Below are positions 5,033 to 33,733 of a stretch of 64,000 nucleotides of DNA, piece by piece; within the stretch, counting starts at the first letter, position 1; each line of letters opens with the position of its first letter. Location of the stretch: assembly GCF_003991155.1 (NCBI RefSeq), contig NZ_CP031293.1; one strand, written 5' to 3'. This stretch comes from Escherichia coli (GTDB lineage: Bacteria; Pseudomonadota; Gammaproteobacteria; Enterobacterales; Enterobacteriaceae). The position numbers were made by a program, and so were the translations under genes. The notes under the pieces were generated by a model. The model saw only the letters and a program-made list of their open reading frames with translations, was not told the DNA's origin and did no database searches.

Positions 5033-6298
5033 TTACGGTTTGAAGTCCAATGGCGCGTTTTTGAACACTTCATATACTGCCTGGCTTGGTGGTTTCGGGA
5101 TCTTCGCAAGTTTAGCTGCTGCCAACGCAGCCTGACAAAGTGCGGGATCGCCACCTTCAGGTTTGATATCCAGTAACATACCATCGGGTGCCAGTTTTAT
5201 GCGCAGCGTACAGGTTTTGCCTGCATAGGACGATGCGTCATAGAACTTACTTTCGATAGCAGATTTAATCTGCCCGGCATAGTTATTGATATCGGCCCCT
5301 GATGCGCCATTGTTTTTAGTATTACCACTCCCGGCTGGCGAAGCATTGTTCCCTTTCGCCCCTCCCCCCGTTTTCGGTGCATTCTTACCAGAGCTTAGCT
5401 CACCGAAAATATCATCTGCCTCTGCGGCAGCTTTTGCTGCAGCGGCTTTTTCAGCTGCTGCTTTTGCCGCTGCCGCTTTTTTGTCTGCGGCGGCTTTTTC
5501 TGCCGCTGCTTTCTTATCAGCTGCTGCCTTTTCAGCAGCCGCTTTTTCTGCTGCTTTTTTGTCGGCTGCCGCTTTCTCTGCTGCCGCTTTCTTATCAGCT
5601 GCAGCCTTTTCAGCAGCCGCTTTCTTCTCAGCTTCTGCTTTGGCTTTTTCAGCAGCTTCAGTTGCCGCTTTCTTTCTTGCTTCAGCTGCAGCTGCTTCTG
5701 CCGCTTCCGCTTTCTTCTTCAGTGCCGCCGCGGCTGCCTCGGCTTTTTTCTGCGCTTCGGCTGCGGCTTTGGCGGCTTCTGCTTCTGCTTTTTTCTTCGC
5801 GTCTGCAGCCGCTTTCTTCGCTGCTTCTTCCGCAGCTTTTGCATCCGCTTCAGCCTTCGCTTTAGCATCTGCCGCCGCTTTCGCTGCCGCTTCTTCCGCT
5901 TGCTTCTGCTTTAACTCGGCCTGTTTTGCGGCTTCTTCAGCCTGCTTTTTCTGTTCCTGAGCCGCTAACCGCTCTTTCTCAAGTTGCTTCAGGCGTTCCT
6001 GTTCAGCCGCTTGTTTCTCACGCAGTTCTTCAGCAGCCTGCTGTTCCTTCATCTTGCGCTGCTCATCAGAACGCTTCGCGCTTGATTCCTGGCTTTGCAT
6101 GCGTTTGTACTGCTCAACTACCGCACCTGAATCAACCATGACAGCGTCGATGGACGAACCACCGCCGCCTCCGGCTGAAGCTTCTATATTCTCATCGAAC
6201 GAACTCCAGATCAGCGCCGCAAATAAGATGACATGCAGCACTGCTGAAATAATTATCGCCCGTTTGAGCTTGTCGTTTTGTTCGGTTGCCTTTGACAC
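5033..6298 (-). CDS. tolA: Tol-Pal system protein TolA
   Basis: 421-aa ORF matching E. coli TolA: N-terminal TM anchor, long Ala/Lys/Glu-rich helical domain II, C-terminal domain III. Confidence 0.95.
   Translation of the reverse strand: MSKATEQNDKLKRAIIISAVLHVILFAALIWSSFDENIEASAGGGGGSSIDAVMVDSGAVVEQYKRMQSQESSAKRSDEQRKMKEQQAAEELREKQAAEQERLKQLEKERLAAQEQKKQAEEAAKQAELKQKQAEEAAAKAAADAKAKAEADAKAAEEAAKKAAADAKKKAEAEAAKAAAEAQKKAEAAAAALKKKAEAAEAAAAEARKKAATEAAEKAKAEAEKKAAAEKAAADKKAAAEKAAADKKAAEKAAAEKAAADKKAAAEKAAADKKAAAAKAAAEKAAAAKAAAEADDIFGELSSGKNAPKTGGGAKGNNASPAGSGNTKNNGASGADINNYAGQIKSAIESKFYDASSYAGKTCTLRIKLAPDGMLLDIKPEGGDPALCQAALAAAKLAKIPKPPSQAVYEVFKNAPLDFKP
5400..5960 (-). repeat. Imperfect in-frame tandem repeats encoding the Ala/Lys/Glu-rich domain II of TolA
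   Basis: Reiterated gctgc/ttttc/gccgc units on the plus strand encoding KKAAAEKAAAD-type repeats; coding repeat, not an intergenic array. Confidence 0.8.
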
Positions 6299-6794: not shown

Positions 6795-7888
<1,094 letters not shown>

Positions 7889-9613: not shown

Positions 9614-11182
9614 TTAGCGTGCCGGCTGAGTAGTCGTGGAAGACTGCTCAAAGTGATAGCGACCGGTTTTCAGGCTGCTTGGGCCGAGGCGTGCAAACTT
9701 GAACATTAAGAACAATTCTGCCACCAGGAACAGGGTATACAGGCCGCAAATCAGCACCATTGAGAAGATGAGATCGCCTGCGGTCAGTGACGAGTTCGCC
9801 ACAGCTGTCGGCAGCACTTCACCGATAGCCCACGGTTGGCGGCCATATTCAGCCACAAACCAGCCCGCTTCTACAGCAATCCACGGCAGCGGAATACCGT
9901 ACAGCGCGGCGCGCAGCAGCCATTTTTTCTCGCCAATGCGGTTGCGGATGACACTCCAGAAAGAGAGCGCGATGATTGCCAGCAGCAGGAAGCCACACGC
10001 CACCATGATACGGAACGCGAAGTACAGCGGCGCTACACGCGGAATGGAGTCTTTGGTTGCCTGTTGAATCTGCGCTTCAGTCGCATCAGCCACGTTTGGC
10101 GTATAGCGTTTCAGCAGCAGACCGTAACCGAGGTCTTTCTTCATGCTATTGAACTGGTCACGAACCGCCTGGTCGGTAGAACCAGAACGCAGTTGCTCGA
10201 GCAGAGAGTACGCCTTCATCCCGTTACGAATGCGTTCTTCATGCTGCACCATCAGTTCTTTCAGGCCGATAACTGGAGTATCCACGGAACGCGTTGCAAT
10301 GATGCCCAGCGCGTAAGGGATCTGGATCGCAAATTTGTTCGTCTCCTCTTCCTGATCAGGAATGCCGAACAGAGTAAAGGCAGCAGGCGCAGGTTGCGTT
10401 TCCCACTCGGCTTCAATAGCAGCCAGTTTGGTTTTCTGCACGTCGCCCATTTCGTAACCAGATTCATCACCCAGAACAATAACAGACAGAACGGCAGCCA
10501 TACCGAAGCTGGCAGCGATAGCAAAGGAGCGTTTAGCGAAGGCGAAGTCACGACCTTTCAGCATATACCATGCGCTGATACCGAGGATGAACATCGCGCC
10601 AGTCACATAACCAGACGCTACAGTGTGAACGAATTTCACCTGAGCAACCGGGTTAAGCACCAGCTCGGAGAAGCTCACCATCTCCATACGCATAGTTTCA
10701 AAGTTGAAATCGGACGCGATTGGGTTTTGCATCCAGCCGTTCGCAACCAGAATCCACAGTGCGGACAGGTTTGAACCGAGCGCCACCAGCCAGGTGACAC
10801 ACATATGCTGAACTTTACCCAGACGATCCCAACCGAAGAAGAACAGACCTACAAAGGTGGATTCGAGGAAGAAGGCCATTAGACCTTCGATTGCCAGCGG
10901 CGCACCGAAGATATCCCCTACATAGTGGGAATAGTAAGACCAGTTAGTCCCGAACTGGAACTCCATGGTCAGACCGGTAGCCACACCCAGAGCGAAGTTG
11001 ATACCAAACAACTTGCCCCAGAACTTGGTCATATCTTTATAAATCTGTTTGCCGGAAAGGACGTAGACCGTTTCCATAATGGCCAGCAGGAACGCCATAC
11101 CGAGCGTCAGTGGCACAAAAAGGAAGTGGTACATCGCGGTCAAGGCAAACTGTAAGCGCGACAGTTCGACTATATCTAACAT
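9614..11182 (-). CDS. cydA: Cytochrome bd-I ubiquinol oxidase subunit I
   Basis: ORF-track frame 9614..11185; second Met ([20 protein letters not shown]...) matches the 522-aa E. coli CydA. Confidence 0.95.
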
Positions 11183-11185
11183 CAT

Positions 11186-11987
11186 GACTCCTTGCTCATC
11201 GCATGAAGACTCCGAGAGTGAACCCCGTTAGAAAGGGTCACACGCATGCCCCAATACAAAATTATTTGCTCGCCTCTATCGTTGCCATTTCATCAAAAGA
11301 GGAAAAGACAATGATAAAAAAGTTACAAATATGTTAATGAATAAACCAAATTGATCCCGTAATTATATTACGCCGCAAAATCCTTACAATAAACAGGTTT
11401 TTATTGAGCAAATTTGCATTTTTCGACAGTGATCAATTTATAGCGAAATTGTCACGATCTCACCAATTTGATCTACGACAATTTATCGTGTTTTGCAGAT
11501 TTTTTTCAAGAATTAAAAATTGATTTATATCAAAACCAACCAAATATGTTAATTATGTATAAACCATAGATCATTGGTGATTTTATTGTTAATTTATTGT
11601 GAAATATTTATGCAACACAATTATTACAATGAAAAGGTATAGATAAAAAACCAGTGTTTTATTTAACAGAACCGCCTTATCCACTTTTTATAATACCAAT
11701 TGATTAGATTAGCCAATTTGTTGCTATTTTACATAACATATTTTTATCAAAGTTAATTGATTGTTGCCTTTATGAGCACCGGCCGTAAGCCCGTTATGTT
11801 ATTGTTTCATTAGTAATAATCACTTAAATGTATCGATGAAACAGGTATGACTTAGCGGGAGTGATTGTTTCTGAGTGAACAGAAACCACTTTCGCCTGAT
11901 AAATGAAAAATGAGCGATTTTTGCAAGTTAGTTTTTCTATAGCCGAGTACGCTCAGCGCCTCGCTTGATTACAATGAGGTTGCTGCT
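11186..11987 (-). promoter_or_regulatory. Long AT-rich cydA upstream region (expected multi-promoter, ArcA/FNR/H-NS-controlled cydAB regulatory region) merging into the accessory-island junction
   Basis: About 800 bp without a convincing ORF upstream of cydA, visibly AT-rich with several TTGAT-like half-sites. cydAB is known to have a long multi-promoter regulatory region; individual sites were not mapped. Confidence 0.45.
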
Positions 11988-12932
11988 ATGAGTCCTGATA
12001 ATATCGGTTCGGCTGTCAATCGCTTCTCAGGTTGGCCATCTAATGATCCTCTAAAAACAGATAACGAATCAATGACATCACCCGTGACTGTGCAGGTAAT
12101 AAAGATGATTGCCGCCATCCTTGACCCATATCGGATAGTCGTTGGAATCGATACACTTTATACAACGCAGCGCGAAACATTTACCTCAGAGAGTCAACAG
12201 CTCATTGAATCAGCATTGCAAACACTTCATGTGATAAATTTAAATAACCTGGAAACAAATCTCGATGAGGACGGTCACTATCTGGCTTTTGGATATAACG
12301 TTGACACTCCTGACAGAATAACCGTTTCTGCTTATAATGAAAAAAAGCCTGGCTGCTATGGCCAATGTCTTTTAATACAGGATGACGAAACAGACTTATT
12401 TAACCTGATAAAAGTTAAAATTTTTGAAGCCAGGCATAATTATGTCGCTCAATTGATGAGCGATCCGGAATTTATGTTCAAATTTAGTTATAGCGCTCAA
12501 CAAAATAGATTAGAACCTCATCTTCTGGTTCCCACTTATTTCCCTCTAAAAACAAACGAACCGGTTACGCAAGAGGATGTACTGTTACTTTATCGTTTCT
12601 TTAAAATGGATGGTGATTTTAATATATTAACATCAGATGAATACATGAGTATCATGACACCTCTGATGAAGTGTGAGCGCAGCATCCACGACCACAACAG
12701 GTATGTGACGGGCAAAGATACCCTTCTTCTGGACTATCCTCCTTCTGGTAACCAGATATATTTCCATATTTTTCCTGACGAATCAGCAACACTAGTCCTT
12801 TATTTTTCAAACAATGACATTGAATGTTTCGTCTTTGAAAGAGATATTCCGAGCCAGTATCGCTTTTTCAAAATGTTTACCAATCTGGCACTGGTTATTG
12901 ATCAGTTAACCGATGCCAATCAAATACTTTAA
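11988..12932 (+). CDS. Hypothetical protein, 314 aa, no recognisable family; AT-rich gene with Ser/Thr/Pro/Asn-rich N-terminus
   Basis: Uninterrupted 945-nt ORF with an AGG-type SD about 9 nt upstream; visibly lower GC than the flanking cyd and glm genes; no TM segments or known motifs detected by eye. Confidence 0.55.
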   Translation: MSPDNIGSAVNRFSGWPSNDPLKTDNESMTSPVTVQVIKMIAAILDPYRIVVGIDTLYTTQRETFTSESQQLIESALQTLHVINLNNLETNLDEDGHYLAFGYNVDTPDRITVSAYNEKKPGCYGQCLLIQDDETDLFNLIKVKIFEARHNYVAQLMSDPEFMFKFSYSAQQNRLEPHLLVPTYFPLKTNEPVTQEDVLLLYRFFKMDGDFNILTSDEYMSIMTPLMKCERSIHDHNRYVTGKDTLLLDYPPSGNQIYFHIFPDESATLVLYFSNNDIECFVFERDIPSQYRFFKMFTNLALVIDQLTDANQIL

Positions 12933-13012
12933 TTTTTATATATTCCCTGTGGCAAATATTGCTAAACAATGCCCGGGGATTAATTTTTATTACTCACGGA
13001 AAGATTTAAATA

Positions 13013-13435
13013 ATGATCCCATCTCAAATCTCTTTCAACACCCTTCCTGTCAATGCAACATACGCTTCAGAGACAACAGTTGACACACAAAAATTCTCTG
13101 ACATCCTCTACTCAGCGGGGTGTTCCCTAAAGGATCTGGCTTATCTGAGCAGATGTCTGGCATCAATACATCCGACTATCGCCAAAAACATTTATGAAAC
13201 AGAAAATCTCAGCGATCAAAAATTACTACATATTGATTGCCGTAGTACAAATGAAATCAAGATAAATATCTTTTTTGGTCAACAACGAGAAGGATTAATT
13301 GAAATTAATTCTGACACTGTCATTTTTTCGATATTGTCTTCATTAATTGACTCCGCCATTTCTAAATTTCAACACCAAATCCCCGTTAACGGTTCAGTTA
13401 ATCGTGAACTATTGTATGAGGATTATACTGATTAA
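13013..13435 (+). CDS. Hypothetical protein, 140 aa, no recognisable family; second gene of the AT-rich module
   Basis: 423-nt ORF 80 nt downstream of the 314-aa ORF, same strand and same AT-rich composition; no known motifs detected by eye. Confidence 0.5.
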   Translation: MIPSQISFNTLPVNATYASETTVDTQKFSDILYSAGCSLKDLAYLSRCLASIHPTIAKNIYETENLSDQKLLHIDCRSTNEIKINIFFGQQREGLIEINSDTVIFSILSSLIDSAISKFQHQIPVNGSVNRELLYEDYTD

Positions 13436-13981
13436 ATCCACCCAGTCGCGAAAATGGCCTGCGTTATTGCCAGAGGTAATAAAACCTTTGATTAACGTTA
13501 CTCATACTGGTAGCACCTTCATGTACCTCTCTTTTTTACGAAAAATCAAAAGAGCTAACTAAGGTCATAATTCGCATGAATCATTAACCATTTGTTATTT
13601 TCAACATTATTTTTACATTAAGCAGAGATGAATTGCAGTGAAATTCGACTTAAATTTTATGAAATGCATTTACTCATGGCTAAACCCATATCACTAAAAT
13701 GCAAATTAGAAGTAGATCACAAATACCTCAATACACCAAATCAAGTTAATTTTAAAAATTTAACATTCATGACATTAGTTGACATAACACACTGAATTAA
13801 CATGAGAATTTAACAACATACTTTAAACAATCATTTCCCGAAAGACATTTTGAAAATAGATCAATTGCAACATTACGGTCAGATAAAGACACTCCTGTGA
13901 TATTAAACCTGTGCCGTTATGAACGGCCATAAATACGACGTGTGTAACTTATTTTACTCTCTGTCTTACAAAGGATTACCC

Positions 13982-25234: not shown

Positions 25235-26905
25235 TTATTTTTGATTTATAGCATATCCTTCTAAGAATTTTTGCGAAGCTGCAATATCTGGGGTAAAGAC
25301 CCGATCCTGGTCGACAAACGGCACGACTTTTCTGTATTCGGTAAACATTGCTTTGGTGGATTTCCCTAATGCCAGTTGTGGATCGGCCTGCAACCGTAAA
25401 TCGAGAGCCTGTGCGGAATGCATCAGTTCAATGCCATAAATCACGTTCAGATTATCGACAACCTGTTTCAATCTTCTGGCCGCGTGGTCATTATTGGCAC
25501 CGGTATCTTCTATACCTCCGGCAACCGGTTGAATATCGAAAGAAACCGGGTTAGCGAGATCGACATTTTCCGCATGCAGCGCAACAAACGGGATATGTAA
25601 TGAACCGAAGCCATGACCTTTATTACCTGCTGCCGACAGGAAGCGTGACAAACCGGTAAAGTGATCATCTTCAAGATGCAGCGAGCGGCGCATACTGTTA
25701 TGTGAAACATGCACTAACGCCACGGTCAGACGCTGGGTGGCAAGCGCAACCGGTAACGATTCGAAATTCGCCGTCGGGAAGATCCCACCGCTGATTGCCC
25801 CATCTTTAACAAAATATTGCGCGACCTGACTGGAGTCCTGATACGCTTTGTCTGCATTCAGCACGGTTGCCGGGTTGTCATCGGAACTGTTGATCTGCAC
25901 GGTAATGGTATCTTCAGCATCGCGCAACGCGCGCATTGCCTCAGAAATGGTATACACCGTCGTTCTGAACGATAACGGATCCTGCAATGCACGTTTGTCA
26001 TGCTTATGCCATAAATAAGAACCACTTAACGCATCGCGAATCTCTTTAGCGGAATCAGCCAACTGCGGGAAAGGACGCACGGCGATCGACTGCGGCAGTA
26101 CCGGCGCGACATTGCCATTCAACGCTTCCAGACTCATAGCGAAAACCACCGGGCTGACATTCAGCAACTGACGTGCCGAACGAACAGCTTCGATAGCGTA
26201 GGCTGTCCCGACGCTGTTGTTCGATAAAATCGCCAGCATATCTTTACCCTGCGGTACCAGTGGCTTAAGTCCCACTTTCGCCAGCGCGTCACCACCGCTC
26301 ATTTGCACGCCATTTACTCGGGCTTTCCATTCCCCCATCATCACCAGACCAACGTGCGAAGCGAGCATAATATCCGCTGCGCCGATACTTCCCCGCACCG
26401 GAATTAACGGTGTAACGCCGCGATTAATAAATTCGGCATACAACTCGGCAATATAAGGCTGTGCGCCGGTTTGCCCATGCAGCATGGTATTTAAACGTAA
26501 TACCATTGAAAGGCGTGCCAGATAATCCGGTAACATCGGACCAACGCCCGCAGAATGGGCGCGCAGCGCGGCAGCATTAAATTTTTTCGACGCGTCAATC
26601 ACCTCAGGCGTTAAATTTCCTTTGGCATCAAATATGGGCTGATCTTTATTTAGCCCCACGCCCACGGTTAAGCCATAAACAGGCGTACCTGAATGCGCGG
26701 CAGTCATCACCAGATCATAACTTTTTTCCATGCGCTCCATGGCGTTCGACGCGATTTTGACGCCGTTATCACCTAATGCAATTGACCAGGCCTGGTCAAT
26801 GGAAAGATGTTCGCCATCCAGCGTAATGGTTGATTTCGCCATCGCAATGGAGCAAACGCTCCAGAGCACAACGGTGACAGTGACTCTTCGTATCAATCCT
26901 TTCAT
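25235..26905 (-). CDS. Histidine ammonia-lyase (HAL/PAL) family protein with N-terminal signal peptide and apparently degenerate MIO motif
   Basis: 556-aa ORF. N-terminus MKGLIRRVTVTVVLWSVCSIAMA-KS looks like a Sec signal peptide; the rest aligns by eye with HutH (YGLTVGVG, ...PVRGSIGAADIMLASH...), but the canonical GASGDL (Ala-Ser-Gly MIO precursor) reads GAADIM. Confidence 0.7.
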   Translation of the reverse strand: MKGLIRRVTVTVVLWSVCSIAMAKSTITLDGEHLSIDQAWSIALGDNGVKIASNAMERMEKSYDLVMTAAHSGTPVYGLTVGVGLNKDQPIFDAKGNLTPEVIDASKKFNAAALRAHSAGVGPMLPDYLARLSMVLRLNTMLHGQTGAQPYIAELYAEFINRGVTPLIPVRGSIGAADIMLASHVGLVMMGEWKARVNGVQMSGGDALAKVGLKPLVPQGKDMLAILSNNSVGTAYAIEAVRSARQLLNVSPVVFAMSLEALNGNVAPVLPQSIAVRPFPQLADSAKEIRDALSGSYLWHKHDKRALQDPLSFRTTVYTISEAMRALRDAEDTITVQINSSDDNPATVLNADKAYQDSSQVAQYFVKDGAISGGIFPTANFESLPVALATQRLTVALVHVSHNSMRRSLHLEDDHFTGLSRFLSAAGNKGHGFGSLHIPFVALHAENVDLANPVSFDIQPVAGGIEDTGANNDHAARRLKQVVDNLNVIYGIELMHSAQALDLRLQADPQLALGKSTKAMFTEYRKVVPFVDQDRVFTPDIAASQKFLEGYAINQK

Positions 26906-26955
26906 TGTGTTTCCTTATCATGATGAGTTTAACAACGGGTTACTGCGACAACGTT

Positions 26956-27906
26956 TTAATTTGTTCTATCTGTTTTCCCCCGCCGGACAATACTGGTCAC
27001 CAGGCGAGCGGCAACTTTCGCAGTTAAATTATCGCGGTCCAGGTCCGGGTTAAGTTCGGCAATATCCGCAGCAATCAACTTCTCGCTACCGGCGATTAAA
27101 TTCACAATGGCTTCAGTAATATTTAACGGCACGCCTAACGGTGATGGAGCAGAAACACCGGGCGCCTGATAACCTGGTAAAACATCGAGACAAATCGTTA
27201 AATAAATGGCGTCACAAGCCTGAATATCTGCCGAGAGCGCATTAGCGATCTCATGCAAACCACGTTCAAATTGCAGAGATTCGTCCAGCCAATAACGCAC
27301 ACCGAGACAATCAGCGCGATCAAATAACGCCTGAGTATTGGCAAAACGACTTATTCCCAGCACGCGATAATGAAACGGTTTGCCATGCTGCGCGTTCCAC
27401 TCTTGCATCTGACGAAACGGCGTACCTGAATTGGCTTGTTCCGCCATCCGTAAATCAAAATGCGCGTCAAGGTTCACAATCAGTAACCGCTGAATATCCG
27501 GACGCGACTGCATAATCCCCTGAAATGTTCCCCACGCCACTTCATGACCGCCCCCCAGAACCACCGGTAAACTGCCGCGCGCAATGGCTGTAGATACGTT
27601 AGCCGCCAGACGATTTTGTGCGGATTCCAGCGCGTGGTCCTCGCTTTGTACATCGCCCATATCGAAAATAGCGCCTTCACAGAGCACTGGCATATTTCCC
27701 AACATGCTGCGCAACGCGCCCGGTCCGCCTGCTGCACCCGCTCGCCCATCATTACGTTGCACTCCGTCATCAACGGCAAAACCAATCAGCGTACAACCGC
27801 CGTGGCTTTGTTCACTAAACGGTTGCACATGCTGATGCCAGCGAGTGCTGATGCCGGTTTCCTGCGAGTCAACACGCCCACTCCACGGCAAAAATGTTTG
27901 CTTCAT
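26956..27906 (-). CDS. hutG: Formimidoylglutamase (arginase-family HutG)
   Basis: ORF-track frame extends to 27945; start set to MKQTFLPW, whose ATG overlaps the hutI stop by 1 nt. Arginase-fold motifs (GGGHEVAWG, NLDAHFDLR, DVLPGYQAPGVSAPSPLG) resemble Salmonella/Klebsiella HutG. Confidence 0.85.
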   Translation of the reverse strand: MKQTFLPWSGRVDSQETGISTRWHQHVQPFSEQSHGGCTLIGFAVDDGVQRNDGRAGAAGGPGALRSMLGNMPVLCEGAIFDMGDVQSEDHALESAQNRLAANVSTAIARGSLPVVLGGGHEVAWGTFQGIMQSRPDIQRLLIVNLDAHFDLRMAEQANSGTPFRQMQEWNAQHGKPFHYRVLGISRFANTQALFDRADCLGVRYWLDESLQFERGLHEIANALSADIQACDAIYLTICLDVLPGYQAPGVSAPSPLGVPLNITEAIVNLIAGSEKLIAADIAELNPDLDRDNLTAKVAARLVTSIVRRGKTDRTN

Positions 27907-29117
27907 TACCAACTCCTTTTTCCGCCGACAATAAGCCCCTGGCAAGGCTGATGCCCAAACCAGTAAGCCAGTTCACGTGGATGATTAAGATCCCAGACCG
28001 CCATATCCGCCCGTAATCCCGGTGCAAGTTCACCCCGGTCAATAAGTCCAAGTGCCTTTGCCGCATTACGCGTAACGCCCTGAACGGCTTCCAGCGGCGT
28101 CATGCGAAACAGCGTACAGGCCATATTGATCATCAATGGCAATGACATATTGGGAGACGTTCCGGGATTATGGTCCGTGGAGATAGCAATCGGCACACCT
28201 GCGGCCCGCAGAGCGACAATCGGCGGCAGATGGGTTTCGCGCAGGAAGTAATAAGCACCGGGAAGCAAAACCGCCACTGTTCCAGCCGCTTTCATGGCGG
28301 CGATCCCCGACTCGCTCAGGTACTCCAGATGATCGCAGGAGAGTGCAGAAAACGCCGCTGCCAGCGCCGCGCCTTGCTGGTCAGAAAGCTGTTCGGCATG
28401 CAGTTTTACAGGTAATCCATAGCTTTGCGCTTTACTGAAAACGCGCCGTACCTGCTCTGGAGTAAAGGCGATGTTTTCACAAAAAGCATCAACTGCATCA
28501 ATCAGCCCCTGTTCATGCAACACGCACATCCAGTCGCAAAGCGCCGTAATGTAATCATCACTGCGCCCGGCAAACTCTGGCGGCAGGCTGTGCGCCCCGA
28601 GAAACGTAGACTGAATATGTAACCCGGTAGATTGCTGCAAGCGGCGGATCACGCGTAAACAACGTGCTTCATCTTCCAGCGTTAAGCCATAACCCGATTT
28701 GATTTCAAGCGTACTGACGCCTTCACGTTGCCAGTTTCGCAGTCGCTGCGCCGCCAGTTCAAACAACTGTGTTTCGCTGGCTGCCCGCGTGGCATTAACC
28801 GTAGATAAGATCCCGCCGCCCGCTCTGGCGATATCTTCATAAGCCACGCCTTGCAACCGCATCTCAAACTCGTTCGCCCTCTGGCCGCCATACACCAGAT
28901 GTGTATGACAATCCACCAGACCGGGTGTCAGCAACTTACCCTGTAGATCGTGTTCCTCTGTAATATCAGCCGTCAGTTCACGGGGGATCTGCGTGGCCTT
29001 CCCAAGCCAGACAATCGAGTCACCACGGCTGATTAATGCCCCCTTTTCAATCACTCCCCAATCGTTAGCGGAAAGCGTCGCCAGCGTGGTATTTCGCCAG
29101 AGCGTTAATGCACTCAT
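27906..29117 (-). CDS. hutI: Imidazolonepropionase
   Basis: ORF-track frame extends to 29150; start set to MSALTLWRN (ATGA overlap with the hutD stop). Amidohydrolase motif DCHTHLVYGG and overall collinearity with HutI. Confidence 0.85.
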   Translation of the reverse strand: MSALTLWRNTTLATLSANDWGVIEKGALISRGDSIVWLGKATQIPRELTADITEEHDLQGKLLTPGLVDCHTHLVYGGQRANEFEMRLQGVAYEDIARAGGGILSTVNATRAASETQLFELAAQRLRNWQREGVSTLEIKSGYGLTLEDEARCLRVIRRLQQSTGLHIQSTFLGAHSLPPEFAGRSDDYITALCDWMCVLHEQGLIDAVDAFCENIAFTPEQVRRVFSKAQSYGLPVKLHAEQLSDQQGAALAAAFSALSCDHLEYLSESGIAAMKAAGTVAVLLPGAYYFLRETHLPPIVALRAAGVPIAISTDHNPGTSPNMSLPLMINMACTLFRMTPLEAVQGVTRNAAKALGLIDRGELAPGLRADMAVWDLNHPRELAYWFGHQPCQGLIVGGKRSW

Positions 29118-29704
29118 AAGGATTTTTCCCCTCGTAGATAATAAAGCCACCAGCCCGCCAGCTCACCGACGGAGACTTTCTTCCGTGGTACGAAACGCCA
29201 GGGCCTGCCATCAGGTGCAACCAGCCATAACAACATATTTGCCGCGACAAACACCCTTTTCTTGCCGCTTATCCACTCCCCTTCACACAGCGTGAACAGG
29301 CCCGCTTGCGCAAGTGACGGAGGACGCCAGTCAACGGCACTTTGCACCCGCAACATCCCCGCATCGCCTTCCCGCGCCATAACATTCAGATCGCGAACCC
29401 CGCCGCCCAGCAGCTGGCAATCAGGCATAGCTTCTCCAGGGAAAATTAAGGCGGGATCGTGACGTTGCAGGTTGATGATCGAATCGGCAAACGTTAGCTT
29501 CACCCCTTCCCCGTCGAGAATCGCGAGGCCACGAACCACGCCAGGCCACGCTGAAAAAGAGCCATCCTGACTGACATTCGCCATACTGATGCGCAACAAC
29601 CAGTTTTCATCATCGGGCCAGGCAAGCAGCTGTCGGGTAAACCCCCCGCCGTTGCGCCACGGTTGCAGCGGCTTATCCATTGCAGAAATCAGCATCGGTT
29701 CCAT
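29114..29704 (-). CDS. hutD: HutD/Ves-family protein
   Basis: 196-aa ORF with the PWRNGGG motif I associate with HutD/Ves; located within the hut cluster. Confidence 0.7.
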   Translation of the reverse strand: MEPMLISAMDKPLQPWRNGGGFTRQLLAWPDDENWLLRISMANVSQDGSFSAWPGVVRGLAILDGEGVKLTFADSIINLQRHDPALIFPGEAMPDCQLLGGGVRDLNVMAREGDAGMLRVQSAVDWRPPSLAQAGLFTLCEGEWISGKKRVFVAANMLLWLVAPDGRPWRFVPRKKVSVGELAGWWLYYLRGEKSL

Positions 29705-29705
29705 A

Positions 29706-31115
29706 TTAAGACTCGGGATAAATCGTATAAGCAGGAACGCAGGTGGTGCGTTTGGCCCACGGGTAATAGATAACGGCGGTAATTAACAAGCCGACAATCC
29801 AGGAGATATCCGCCCCATCCATCAGGACAGAAATGGGTCCCTGATACAGTTTTTGATTCAGGAAGGGGATCTGCACCAACACGCCTACGCCATAGCACGT
29901 CAAAGCGGTTTTGTTATACGCGCCATAACGCCCTTCCGGGGTATAAAGTGCCGGAATATCGGTTTTACCTTGTGAGATGAAGTAGTAGTCGATGAGATTA
30001 ATGGCGCTCCACGGCACAAATACCGTCAACAGCAGCAGAACGAAGTTTTTGAAATTATTCAAAAAATCTGCGCTTGCCGCCAGCGCGACGACCATCGACA
30101 ACAGCACGAACCCTACAACGTAGGCAGCACGAACACGCTGTGAAACCTGACTGCGATTATTAAAGGCGCTGACGGTCGCCAGAATCGACATAAAGCCACC
30201 GTAGGCATTCAAACAGTTCACCGTCAGTTTGCCGCAAACAATCACCGTATAAATCAGAATGGCGAAGGTGGGTCCGGCTAACTCACCCATAAAACCAACC
30301 TGATCCTTCAGGAAGTTAGCACCACAGGCCGCAACAAGCACGCCAAACGTCATGGCACATTGCGCGCCAAGCGTGGTTCCCAGAAAGGTGGCAAAGAAGA
30401 TTGATTTTGCTGGCGTATCAGAGGGTAAATAGCGGGAATAATCAGAGGCGTAAGGGGCAAACGTTAATTGCCATCCGGCAGAGAGAGCAATCGTTAATAA
30501 AAAGACCGACAGACTAAATGGCTTTTGACCAAATGCCGCAGCCACATCGTAGTGACCGCTAAGTTGAGTGGCCAGGTAAATAAACCCCAGAATACTTAAT
30601 ATCCCTGCAACACGGCCAACGACGTGAATAAGTTTATAACCGACCAATGCGATCATCGCGGTCAGCATGCCGAAAATAATAATTCCGGTCGATGCCGATT
30701 CGAAACCAAATATCCGGTTAATCGCCTGACCGGATAATACTGTACCCGTCGCGGCAAATCCAAGGTACATAATAATCACCATCAGTAACGGTAGCGCCGC
30801 TCCTTTAACGCCAAAGCGGATACGACTGGAGATCATCTGGGGTAATCCCAGCTTTGCCCCCTGCGACGAGTGCAATGCCATTACTGCACCACCAATAATA
30901 TTACCGATTAATAAACCAATTATTGCTGACATGGCTTCGGAGCCAAAAATAATCGCTAACGCGCCGTCCACCACAGCGGTAATTTGTAAGTTAGCACTTA
31001 GCCATAAAGTAAACTGACTGGATGGCGAGCCGTGGCGAGCAGACTCAGGAACGGCGTTAATCGTATTTGATTCTAATACTGGCTTTTTACTGCGGATAGG
31101 GCTGCTTGATTCCAT
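29706..31115 (-). CDS. NCS1-family permease (cytosine/purine/uracil/thiamine/allantoin permease family); putative urocanate/histidine-related transporter
   Basis: ORF-track frame extends to 31160; start set to MESSSPIRSK (AGGAGA SD 7 nt upstream). Multi-TM protein with NCS1/CodB-like layout; substrate inferred only from the hut context. Confidence 0.75.
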   Translation of the reverse strand: MESSSPIRSKKPVLESNTINAVPESARHGSPSSQFTLWLSANLQITAVVDGALAIIFGSEAMSAIIGLLIGNIIGGAVMALHSSQGAKLGLPQMISSRIRFGVKGAALPLLMVIIMYLGFAATGTVLSGQAINRIFGFESASTGIIIFGMLTAMIALVGYKLIHVVGRVAGILSILGFIYLATQLSGHYDVAAAFGQKPFSLSVFLLTIALSAGWQLTFAPYASDYSRYLPSDTPAKSIFFATFLGTTLGAQCAMTFGVLVAACGANFLKDQVGFMGELAGPTFAILIYTVIVCGKLTVNCLNAYGGFMSILATVSAFNNRSQVSQRVRAAYVVGFVLLSMVVALAASADFLNNFKNFVLLLLTVFVPWSAINLIDYYFISQGKTDIPALYTPEGRYGAYNKTALTCYGVGVLVQIPFLNQKLYQGPISVLMDGADISWIVGLLITAVIYYPWAKRTTCVPAYTIYPES

Positions 31116-31278
31116 GAAAAAGTCTCCTGCAAAATGAGAGGTCATTTTTTGAAACAGCAATAGAGGGTCGGGAGATATTTCTCTCGACGATGTAAAAATA
31201 TTTTTTGATAATTATTGTTATACAGGCGAATTATTCTCCGCCTGTATTAGCGCAAATATTAAATGACGGCGTTAATAT

Positions 31279-32976
31279 TTAGCGAATCATCGGTAATTTC
31301 AGACCATAGTTTTTGGCACATTCAATTGCCGCTTCATAACCCGCATCCGCATGACGCATAACCCCGGACGCACAGTCATTCACCAGCACACGCGCCAGAC
31401 GTTTTTCGGCTTCTTCGCTACCATCGGCAACAATAACCATCCCGGCGTGTTGTGAATACCCCATCCCGACGCCGCCGCCATGATGCAGGGATACCCACGT
31501 TGCTCCCCCTGCAGTGTTGAGCAAACCGTTGAGCAACGGCCAGTCAGAAACCGCATCACTGCCATCAAGCATGCTTTCGGTTTCGCGGTTCGGGCTGGCG
31601 ACAGAACCGGTATCAAGATGATCGCGCCCAATCACAATCGGTGCTTTTAGTTCACCGTTGCGCACCATTTCGTTGAATGCCAGCCCCGCCAGGTGACGCT
31701 CACCAAGCCCCAGCCAGCAAATACGTGAAGGAAGTCCCTGGAAGGCAATGCGCTCGCGCGCCATATCCAGCCAGCGATGCGTCAGTACGTTATTGGGGAA
31801 CAACTCTTTAATTTTGGCATCAGTTTTATAGATATCTTCCGGGTCGCCAGACAGCGCCACCCAACGGAATGGACCTTTGCCTTCACAAAACATTGGACGA
31901 ATATAAGCCGGAACAAAGCCCGGGAAATCAAAGGCATTTTGCAGACCTTCGTTGAAGGCCACCTGGCGGATGTTGTTGCCATAATCGACAACCGGGATCC
32001 CCATCGCCTGGAAGTCCAGCATCCCCTGAACATGTGCGACGCAGCTCTGTGCCGCTTCTTTTTGCAATCTGGCGTGTTGCTGTGGATCCTGCTGTGCAGC
32101 GCGCCATTGTTCTACGCTCCAGCCCATCGGTAGGTAGCCATAAACCAGATCGTGAGCGGAAGTCTGGTCGGTCACCAGATCCGGCTTGATCGCCCCCTGA
32201 CGTGCACGTTTCACCAGTTCAGGAACAATTTCCGCCGCATTGCCCAACAGCGCGATTGAAACAGCGTCTTTGCGCTCAGTATGGTATTTAATCAGCGCCA
32301 GTGCATCATCGAGATCTTTCGCTTGTTTATCGACATAACGGGTACGCAGACGGAAGTCGATGCTACTTTGCTGGCACTCGATATTTAATGAACACGCCCC
32401 CGCCAGAGTCGCCGCCAGCGGTTGTGCACCGCCCATACCACCTAGCCCTGCGGTCAGGATCCATTTTCCACTCAGCGAATTGTTGTAGTGCTGACGACCC
32501 GCTTCAACAAAGGTTTCGAACGTTCCCTGCACAATGCCCTGACTACCGATGTAGATCCACGAGCCAGCGGTCATCTGGCCGTACATGAACAGACCTTTAC
32601 GATCCAGTTCATTGAAATGATCCCAGTTGGCCCATTGCGGTACCAGGTTAGAGTTGGCAATCAATACGCGCGGCGCATCGGTATGCGTTTTAAACACGCC
32701 TACGGGTTTACCGGACTGAACCAGCAGTGACTCATCAGCTTCCAGATTTTTCAGTGATTCAAGGATTTTGTCAAAACACTCCCAGTTACGTGCCGCACGA
32801 CCAATACCACCATACACCACCAGATGCTGTGGATTTTCGGCAACGTCGGGATCAAGGTTGTTCTGCAACATCCGATAGGCAGCTTCGATCTGCCAGTTTT
32901 TGCAGTGCAGCTGCGTACCGTGTGGCGCATGGATTACACGGCTGGTATCAATACGCGGGTCTGAAGGCTTACTCAT
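31279..32976 (-). CDS. hutU: Urocanate hydratase (urocanase)
   Basis: ORF-track frame extends to 33075; start set to [11 protein letters not shown] (AGGAG SD). Near-collinear with canonical HutU (...[17 protein letters not shown]..., ...[15 protein letters not shown]..., ...[11 protein letters not shown]...). Confidence 0.9.
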
Positions 32977-33733
32977 GAATCTTCTCCTGTTACTTGATAA
33001 AATTAAACGCTGTAATCGGTCAGAAAAAACGAACGAATGAATATAGAAACGGTTTCTATAATTCCCGTTTATCATTTTGTATTATTAATTCATTTAGTGA
33101 ATATTGTTTGTCGTGGTATATTCACTATGAATATAAATTCAAAACCACCAACGCGTTGTATGCGAATTCAATATGCTTAATTTAACTTGTCGAAAAAGTG
33201 ATATTGTTGGCAAAATATTTTCTAATTTGAACATATGAATATGATGAGATTGCAAGATGTCAGTAATTTAATTATATGAGAAATGCGTTAATAACGACCA
33301 GATATTAGCGTAACAACAGGTGTTCCGACACCACACAGTGCGCATAACACAATGATATTTAAAATAAGATCTTCATTATTCGTCATAAAGACATGTTTTA
33401 TTATCATTAATAATCCATTTGTTTTCATCCCACTTTTGATAATTAAAAAACGGCAACAATGGATAGTTACCCGACGTAAAAACAGGCGTAAAAATAAATC
33501 TTAAAATATATCCACTGGAAATTATCATTTTTCATATTTTACAATCTGGCGTCGATAACTGACCCCTTTTATAACACCCCCGTTTGTTAATAGTCTTTTT
33601 TATCTTGTATTGATCGTCATTGCTGCATACACTACGCGCGTTTTCTTTCCCTTTTGCTGGCTGCTGACCGGAAAGACAAAATTACCCTCGCAATAAAGGG
33701 GGTTGTTTAACGTCTATATTTCAGGACAGCGTT

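Follow-up and report, generated by a model that had tools for sequence, protein, structure and literature searches.

Two co-directional open reading frames (ORFs), which encode 314 and 140 amino acids (aa) and are 80 nt apart, lie between cydA and the glm genes in a stretch of 64,000 nucleotides of Escherichia coli DNA (NCBI RefSeq assembly GCF_003991155.1, contig NZ_CP031293.1) that we call the window. They stand exactly where a preliminary description of this DNA, made from its letters only, had placed them. Our overall reading, to which we give about an even chance, is that ORF1 and ORF2 are lineage-restricted orphan genes of Escherichia and do not belong to any described toxin, effector, or defence family. 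The narrower statement that this is a real orphan pair, and not an obligate two-component system, is rather probable.

Evidence of coding and selection

The two ORFs are compositionally foreign, being more AT-rich than the core genes of the host. The G+C content in windows of 400 nt is 0.36–0.41 in the ORFs, 0.28–0.34 in the non-coding flanks, and 0.49–0.57 in cydA and the glm genes, in agreement with the contrast that had first drawn attention to the locus. The comparison holds for whole genes (0.385 for ORF1 and 0.364 for ORF2, against 0.50–0.53 for cydA and glmS/L/E) and for third codon positions (GC3), where ORF1 and ORF2 have values of 0.36 and 0.33, against 0.52–0.62 in cydA and glmS/L/E (0.52–0.59 in glm).

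We then assessed if these frames encode proteins. When the region 11186–13981 was shuffled (n = 2,000), a stop-free run of at least 314 codons was never observed (0/2,000), and one of at least 140 codons was observed in 23 of the 2,000 shuffles. The most divergent allele of ORF1, that of E. albertii, has 64% aa identity. The two alleles are separated by 218 nucleotide substitutions, with zero gaps and zero stops across the 314 codons, and in simulations where 218 substitutions were placed at random the frame stayed open in just 5e-5 of the runs. The ratio of non-synonymous to synonymous substitution rates (dN/dS) of ORF1 is 0.41–0.43 between species (p about 1e-5) and 0.37 between E. coli alleles. 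The values for ORF2 are 0.35 relative to an E. coli allele with 92% identity (p = 0.003) and 0.51 relative to E. albertii (p = 0.02). These p values are binomial and range from 1e-5 to 0.02, i.e., all ratios are significantly lower than 1. Given the preserved frame (P = 5e-5) and these ratios, ORF1 is certainly, and ORF2 very probably, protein-coding.

Both genes evolve fast, under selection that is purifying and yet relaxed. The dN/dS of their neighbours is far lower: 0.006 for cydA, 0.01–0.02 for glmE, and 0.06–0.12 for glmS. The synonymous divergence (dS) between E. coli and E. albertii is 0.54–0.59 for ORF1/ORF2 and 0.62–0.70 for glmS/glmE, against 0.25 for the adjacent cydA. This pattern is consistent with a common history of the ORFs and of glm, distinct from that of the core gene cydA, although part of the contrast could come from a strong codon bias in cydA.

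Search for homologues

We searched for relatives of both proteins among 5.8 billion clustered proteins, using word-indexed methods (single-sequence and profile), and among 1.84 billion representatives, using exhaustive searches with hidden Markov models (HMM). The relatives found in the two sets are solely proteins, or fragments of proteins, of E. coli, Shigella, E. albertii, and Escherichia sp. In a scan of GTDB that took one genome per species, the only further matches were in the E. albertii type strain, in Escherichia sp. MOD1-EC7003, and in two metagenome-assembled genomes (MAGs): a Citrobacter sp. (HRGM_Genome_0066) and a Collinsella sp. (Map_57_008). The contigs of these MAGs are 98–99% identical to the E. 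coli locus and most likely reflect contamination of the bins by E. coli DNA. No copies of the pair were found in phages. The three ‘plasmid’ matches in PLSDB come from chromosomal records, either chromosomes of 4.9 Mb or a fragment of 730 kb. We considered a plasmid or phage origin of the pair and rejected it because there is no phage match and the plasmid records are mislabelled chromosomes or fragments. In summary, ORF1 and ORF2 appear to be genuine orphans, with no detectable homologue outside the narrow taxon Escherichia/Shigella.

Attempts to assign the proteins to families using Pfam, NCBIfam, PADLOC, PHROGs, and PDB returned nothing usable, in line with the preliminary description, which could place neither protein. 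There was no match in Pfam at E ≤ 0.1, whether the queries were single sequences or all the members of the ORF1 alignment, none in NCBIfam for either protein, no PADLOC family for either at E ≤ 1, and no PDB sequence with an E value better than about 1 in single-sequence and profile searches. One PHROG of unknown function was matched at E = 0.07. No family of toxins, antitoxins, or immunity proteins (including SUKH/Imm) was matched in Pfam, NCBIfam, or PADLOC. The SMI1_KNR4, SUKH, and Syd profiles gave no match, nor was there a confident SUKH fold. In Pfam and NCBIfam, we found no match to effector or chaperone families—including no CesT/SycE-type Pfam match for ORF2—and no signature of a nuclease, ATPase, nucleotidyltransferase (NTase), TIR, SIR2, or protease in either protein.

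Every source annotates the two proteins as hypothetical or uncharacterised, and the genes have been in the databases as such since the first O157:H7 genomes. In O157:H7 Sakai, ORF1 is ECs_0767 (WP_001361288 / WP_001305591 in RefSeq) and ORF2 is ECs_0766 (WP_000613114 / WP_000613113 in RefSeq), all named ‘hypothetical protein’. In the literature, the locus tags ECs_0767 and ECs_0766 are mentioned in no paper text. Public assemblies contain variants of ORF2: a 173-aa form with an N-terminal fusion, a 160-aa form with a C-terminal frameshift (105 members), and a 195-aa chimera carrying a PF18975 domain. Some of these frame-shifted or fused variants may be assembly errors. In the assembly GCA_002230845.1, cydA, tolQ, and other core genes are split into many short fragments, which indicates a heavily frame-shifted assembly of poor quality and not true pseudogenes.

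Predicted properties of the proteins

The products of ORF1 and ORF2 have masses of 36.3 and 15.7 kDa, isoelectric points (pI) of 4.6 and 4.8, and grand averages of hydropathy (GRAVY) of -0.25 and -0.10. As previously described, there is no membrane helix: no window of 19 residues is hydrophobic enough (maximum Kyte–Doolittle 1.35–1.37). Both proteins are thus predicted to be soluble, acidic, and of a cytoplasmic type, and to lack catalytic, nucleotide-binding, DNA-binding, and membrane motifs. The Ser/Thr/Pro/Asn-rich N-termini that had been noticed earlier were also recovered. The residues S, T, P, N, and Q make up 44% of the first 25 positions of ORF1 and 52% of those of ORF2, against 29–30% in the remainder, and the N-termini are Leu-poor. 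In an AT-rich gene this is weak evidence of secretion, the composition being partly a product of AT-rich codons.

Structure prediction and fold searches, proposed at the outset as a check, did not identify a fold. The AlphaFold2 models have low confidence, with a mean predicted local distance difference test (pLDDT) of 43 for ORF1 and 39 for ORF2, and their alignments contain only near-identical relatives. Foldseek searches against AFDB50 found nothing beyond the ORF family itself. In the DSSP strings of these low-confidence models, three helices, a three-strand meander, and a long helix follow one another in an order that occurs three times, suggesting three putative units at about residues 32–147 and 195–308 of ORF1 and 25–121 of ORF2. 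The corresponding duplication was sought in the sequences, and neither BLASTP (E = 1.8) nor hhalign of the three units (E 0.05–0.2, probability ≤1%) supported it. We therefore kept an internal duplication of ORF1, with ORF2 as a paralogue, only as a lead. The idea that one ancestral gene was split in two was rejected because E. coli and E. albertii share the stop of ORF1 and the two-gene layout.

Locus organisation and genomic context

The coordinates of the features are given in Table 1. Direct reading of the sequence shows a Shine–Dalgarno motif (GAGG, 11976–11979) 8 nt ahead of the ATG of ORF1 and a weak ribosome-binding motif (GGAAAG, 12998–13003) ahead of ORF2. A consensus scan of the plus strand called no sigma-70 site and no convincing promoter ahead of ORF1. 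It also found no terminator-like site in the spacer between the ORFs or on the 3′ side of ORF2. The spacer lacking such a site, co-transcription of ORF1 and ORF2 is possible. The DNA between ORF2 and glmS is presumably the promoter region of the glm operon; it is 81–92% conserved in glm-carrying E. albertii and in a cryptic Escherichia. None of the Rfam families, including the cobalamin/B12 riboswitch sought before glmS, matched the flanks at E ≤ 1.

Table 1. Features at the ORF1–ORF2 locus (positions in the window).
Feature	Position	Strand	Description and basis
cydA	9614..11185	minus	
cydAB upstream control region	11186..11823	minus	core DNA, outside the module; conservation across E. coli genomes
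Module-specific upstream DNA, presumed ORF1 promoter and 5′ leader	11824..11987	plus	similarity to LF82 ends at 11823
ORF1	11988..12932	plus	314 aa, ATG start; ORF listing
ORF1–ORF2 spacer	12933..13012	plus	80 nt; direct sequence reading
ORF2	13013..13435	plus	140 aa, ATG start; ORF listing
AT-rich spacer from ORF2 to glmS	13436..13981	plus	546 nt; G+C about 0.31
glmS/glmL/glmE	from 13982	plus	same orientation as ORF1/ORF2, directly downstream of them

The preliminary description had the pair bracketed by long AT-rich non-coding DNA. The G+C content is indeed low on both sides, but 11186–11823 is core DNA. This segment is matched in 5,425 of the 5,426 complete genomes of E. coli, with about 81% identity over the first 373 nt in K-12/B-type genomes and about 91% over 638 nt in LF82. 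Within it, at 11520–11533, a perfect FNR box, TTGATTTATATCAA, the sole one in the 64-kb window, lies about 335–349 nt upstream of the start of cydA in DNA conserved across E. coli. The K-12 promoter of cydAB has an FNR site and is under H-NS/ArcA control (PMC3688515, PMC3708157). The left ‘flank’ 11186–11823 is the cydAB control region and not island DNA, and half of what had passed for an AT-rich flank is a well-known regulatory region. Within the left flank, only 11824–11987 is restricted to the genomes carrying the pair.

The interval between cydA and sucD (11186–35230 of the window) is a cargo hotspot whose contents vary by lineage: mngRAB in REL606, a tetratricopeptide-repeat (TPR) protein in LF82, and a 258-aa gene resembling outer membrane proteins (OMP-like) in some E. 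albertii. Here, it holds about 24 kb with ORF1, ORF2, the glm/mesaconate cluster, a LysR regulator, hut genes, and an RtcB-like gene. The pair is found at one fixed chromosomal locus and occupies the cydA-proximal end of this accessory block, the position that the preliminary description had given it. Its neighbours—cydAB, glm, hut, and sucD—are respiratory and catabolic operons. The hut cluster (25235–33075, minus strand) includes an ammonia-lyase, hutG, hutI, a HutD-like gene, a permease, and hutU, and adjoins the glutamate-fermentation cluster. Since histidine degradation yields glutamate, the island may be a single catabolic route. The hut part of the island is missing from O157 Sakai.

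The island has no integrase, transposase, or phage genes within the window, and no polymorphic-toxin, Rhs, contact-dependent inhibition (CDI), or type VI secretion system (T6SS) genes neighbour the pair. We found no convincing direct or inverted repeats around the pair that could be boundaries of a mobile element. An inverted repeat of 24 nt with 75% complementarity (11847–11870 and 13825–13848) encloses both ORFs and is probably due to chance in AT-rich DNA. Its left arm is just beyond the end of the similarity to LF82.

The context bears on the proposal that the pair serves in defence against phages, as a small module. In its favour, the two genes form a cassette whose function is not assigned, in variable DNA of a chromosomal cargo hotspot. 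Yet, PADLOC and PHROGs gave no usable match, neither protein has one of the enzymatic signatures listed above, the neighbours are catabolic operons instead of defence or mobile-element genes, and the pair is inherited vertically at a single fixed locus, with no phage or true plasmid copy. We give it almost no credence.

Distribution and independent loss of the two genes

The pair is present in 1,135 of the 5,426 complete genomes of E. coli, and glmE in 1,131. In a spread sample of 60 carrier genomes, both coding sequences (CDSs) are annotated in all 60. The exceptions inside this sample are one ORF2 whose 3′ end is clipped by IS1 and one partial match, covering 72% of the query in two places. 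In E. coli 2016C-3878, which is otherwise 100% identical to the window, an IS1 (locus 2032–2729) truncates ORF2 at its 3′ end, leaving 131 aa. Carriers include O157:H7, O145, ST38, ST69, and O102:H6 strains as well as E. albertii, and the pair can serve as a marker of lineages among which are O157:H7 and E. albertii. The O157:H7, O145, ST38, ST69, and O102:H6 carriers represent phylogroups D and E, and ST38, ST69, and ST405, among the carriers, are major extraintestinal clones.

In E. albertii, ORF1 has 314 aa in 13 of the 15 cluster members listed. It is frameshifted in the type strain, where the neighbouring OMP-like gene is truncated. ORF2 has been lost in all the E. albertii examined: the glm-carrying lineages share a nonsense codon at position 36 (locus about 5869–6270), and in the lineages without glm it has shrunk to about 31 recognisable codons. 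The latter lineages still have ORF1. In Escherichia sp. MOD1-EC7003, glm is intact, whereas ORF1 has frameshifts and an inserted enterobacterial repetitive intergenic consensus (ERIC) element, and ORF2 has lost its first 93 codons. This ERIC element is one mismatch away from the core consensus (locus positions 7387–7430, within the ORF1 homologue); a related sequence seems to have replaced the 5′ part of ORF2. In Shigella, the pair is known only as fragments. ORF1 thus works, or in any event is kept, in the absence of ORF2 and of glm, and glm persists without either ORF.

The presence of an intact ORF1 beside a dead or deleted ORF2 in E. albertii argues against an obligate toxin–antitoxin or effector–chaperone pair. 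Of the three roles initially suggested, namely an effector/chaperone pair, a toxin-immunity pair, and an anti-phage module, none received support from our analysis. A toxin–antitoxin or toxin–immunity pair would account for two adjoining co-directional genes of unequal size in foreign DNA and for their fast evolution. A variant of this explanation, in which both are orphan immunity proteins of SUKH-like build, draws on the low-confidence models, in which the helices, the meander of three strands, and the helix at the C-terminus loosely resemble SUKH-type immunity domains. But an essential antidote to ORF1 would not be a pseudogene or absent where ORF1 is intact, so ORF2 cannot have that function; the E. 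albertii pattern is compatible with the explanation only if ORF2 is the toxin and ORF1 an orphan protector. The 80-nt gap is also wider than the usual tight coupling, no toxin, antitoxin, or SUKH/Imm family was matched, and no polymorphic-toxin, Rhs, CDI, or T6SS gene lies nearby. We regard this explanation as very improbable.

Almost the same holds for type III secretion, with ORF1 as effector and ORF2 as chaperone, or with both proteins secreted, through the locus of enterocyte effacement (LEE) or E. coli type III secretion system 2 (ETT2). The N-termini are rich in Ser/Thr/Pro/Asn/Gln and poor in Leu, and ORF2 resembles class I chaperones in size and acidity (15.7 kDa, pI 4.8). Carriers include O157:H7 and E. 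albertii, which we take to possess type III secretion systems (T3SSs). Nevertheless, no effector or chaperone family was matched in Pfam or NCBIfam, the N-terminus of ORF2 is itself long and rich in Ser/Thr, and the order of elements predicted for ORF2 (three helices, three strands, and one helix, at low confidence) is not that of the chaperones. The retention of ORF1 without ORF2 in E. albertii, the position among metabolic genes rather than in a prophage or pathogenicity island, and the part of AT-rich codons in the N-terminal composition further make this explanation very unlikely.

The disruptions could also mean that the genes are decaying relics, i.e., were functional in an ancestor and are now effectively neutral DNA that is being lost, with no present function in this strain. 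A dN/dS of 0.35–0.5 is high for bacterial genes, and compares with 0.006–0.12 for cydA, glmS, and glmE. The genes were disrupted independently in the E. albertii type strain (frameshift), MOD1-EC7003 (ERIC and frameshifts), 2016C-3878 (IS1), and Shigella (fragments); ORF2 is nonsense-mutated or deleted in all the E. albertii examined; the majority of E. coli genomes lack the pair; and neither protein is listed in an EDL933 proteome. On the other hand, there is clear statistical evidence of purifying selection on both genes (p 1e-5 to 0.02), two species at a dS of about 0.5 have the frame of 314 codons intact, and full-length alleles prevail among the E. albertii listed (13/15), as do annotated CDSs in the sampled carriers (60/60). 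On balance, we find this explanation unlikely.

Finally, the ORFs could assist the adjacent glutamate-fermentation (methylaspartate/mesaconate) cluster as accessory factors, such as an Escherichia-specific regulator or assembly factor. They are co-oriented with glmS-glmL-glmE and directly upstream of them, they are co-inherited with them within E. coli (1,135 vs. 1,131 genomes), and in the comparison with E. albertii the ORFs and the glm genes have similar dS values. However, the glm cluster has been reported in Klebsiella, Citrobacter, Salmonella, Yersinia, Morganella, and other genera (PMC4682846), and our searches of the protein sets and of GTDB found no relatives of ORF1 or ORF2 in these other glm-bearing genera. 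The pair is thus not a component of that pathway. Furthermore, MOD1-EC7003 has an intact glm cluster with both ORFs destroyed, E. albertii lineages have ORF1 without glm, the GC3 is 0.35 against 0.52–0.59 in glm, 546 nt separate ORF2 from glmS, and neither protein has a regulatory or B12-related motif. An accessory role in glutamate fermentation is, in our view, quite unlikely.

Expression and possible roles

Our reading of the pair as lineage-restricted orphans can be extended to a more specific picture, that of silenced, non-enzymatic binding proteins, which is tentative and which we doubt more than we trust. H-NS silencing of the pair is plausible because its DNA is AT-rich and because the adjacent K-12 promoter of cydAB has been published as repressed by H-NS, with ArcA as antagonist, according to the statement in PMC3708157 that cites Govantes et al. 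2000. H-NS would keep this DNA, which is continuous with the H-NS-repressed cydAB control region, at low expression. In Sakai, the ECs0766 transcript changed by a log2 of +1.05 at 90 min after a shift from 35 to 14 °C (PMC4057180, Table S1). The basis for low expression is thin, consisting of this change of about 2-fold at one time point of a cold shift. When expressed, ORF1 and ORF2 would be transcribed as a unit, divergent from cydAB, and their proteins would bind other macromolecules rather than catalyse. ORF1 would be the autonomous component, possibly with two helix-helix-helix-strand-strand-strand-helix units, and ORF2 a dispensable accessory with a single unit.

Several points weigh against this reading. 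The binding role is argued, weakly, from the lack of catalytic motifs in proteins without homologues. The idea of units derives solely from DSSP strings of models with low pLDDT, and the profile–profile comparison was not significant. The dN/dS of 0.35–0.5 and the repeated independent disruptions—the insertions of ERIC and of IS1, the frameshift of the E. albertii type strain, and the fragments in Shigella—are equally expected of genes drifting to loss. Lastly, the tight co-inheritance with glm in E. coli and the similar dS leave room for a role related to glm.

ORF1 could also be the founder of an undescribed Escherichia-specific family, with its own fold and a discrete role, and ORF2 its optional, paralogous, single-domain partner. 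The proteins might then act, for example, as secreted or injected substrates, or as inhibitors of a host or competitor protein, used in a low-oxygen niche of the gut in which there is activity of the divergent cydAB promoter and of the glm/hut genes next to the pair. We judge this unlikely; it retains some probability because no homologue or fold could be assigned and because selection maintains ORF1 in two species.

If the genes prove to have a discrete function, they would be a clean case of a long (314-aa) orphan maintained across two species of Escherichia and lacking relatives in a set of about 15 billion predicted proteins, and would be useful for work on the origin and persistence of orphan genes. 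In any case, the analysis narrowed the options: the pair is neither an obligate toxin–antidote or effector–chaperone unit nor a defence system listed in the catalogue, and the glutamate-fermentation pathway, as present in other genera, does not include it.

Comparison with known systems

We compared the pair with four kinds of described systems. Type II toxin–antitoxin, polymorphic toxin–immunity, and SUKH cassettes also consist of two genes in foreign DNA that diverge rapidly and encode small, soluble, acidic proteins. Unlike them, the pair has an 80-nt gap, the loss of one partner is fixed in a whole species, no family is matched, and no genes of a delivery system are nearby. Pairs of type III effectors and class I chaperones similarly have a larger protein followed by a small acidic one of about 15 kDa, and Ser/Thr/Pro/Asn-rich N-termini. 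Class I chaperones have about 130–150 aa, and ORF2, with 140 aa and a pI of 4.8, is within this range, but its element order in the low-confidence model differs. The pair also departs from them in its lack of family matches, in the signal-like N-terminus of ORF2, in the retention of ORF1 without ORF2, and in its metabolic context.

The methylaspartate (mesaconate) cluster of E. coli O157:H7 (Kronen & Berg 2015, PMC4682846) is contiguous with the pair, co-oriented, and co-inherited within E. coli. It differs in that it occurs in other genera without the ORFs, in that each survives apart from the other, and in base composition.

The closest category is that of the enterobacterial ORFans, which Daubin and Ochman reportedly described in 2004 as taxonomically restricted, AT-rich, and fast-evolving genes. 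ORFans are typically silenced by H-NS as xenogeneic DNA. Like the pair, they have no homologues beyond a narrow clade, a G+C content far below that of the host genome, a dN/dS that is elevated but lower than 1, a patchy distribution among strains with repeated loss, and an annotation as ‘hypothetical protein’. Unlike typical ORFans, the pair is at a single chromosomal site beside a core regulatory region, and not in a prophage, and ORF1 is long (314 aa), with a frame that has stayed open in two species at a dS of about 0.5. The pair thus fits a known category of genes, for which ORF1 is unusually long and well kept.

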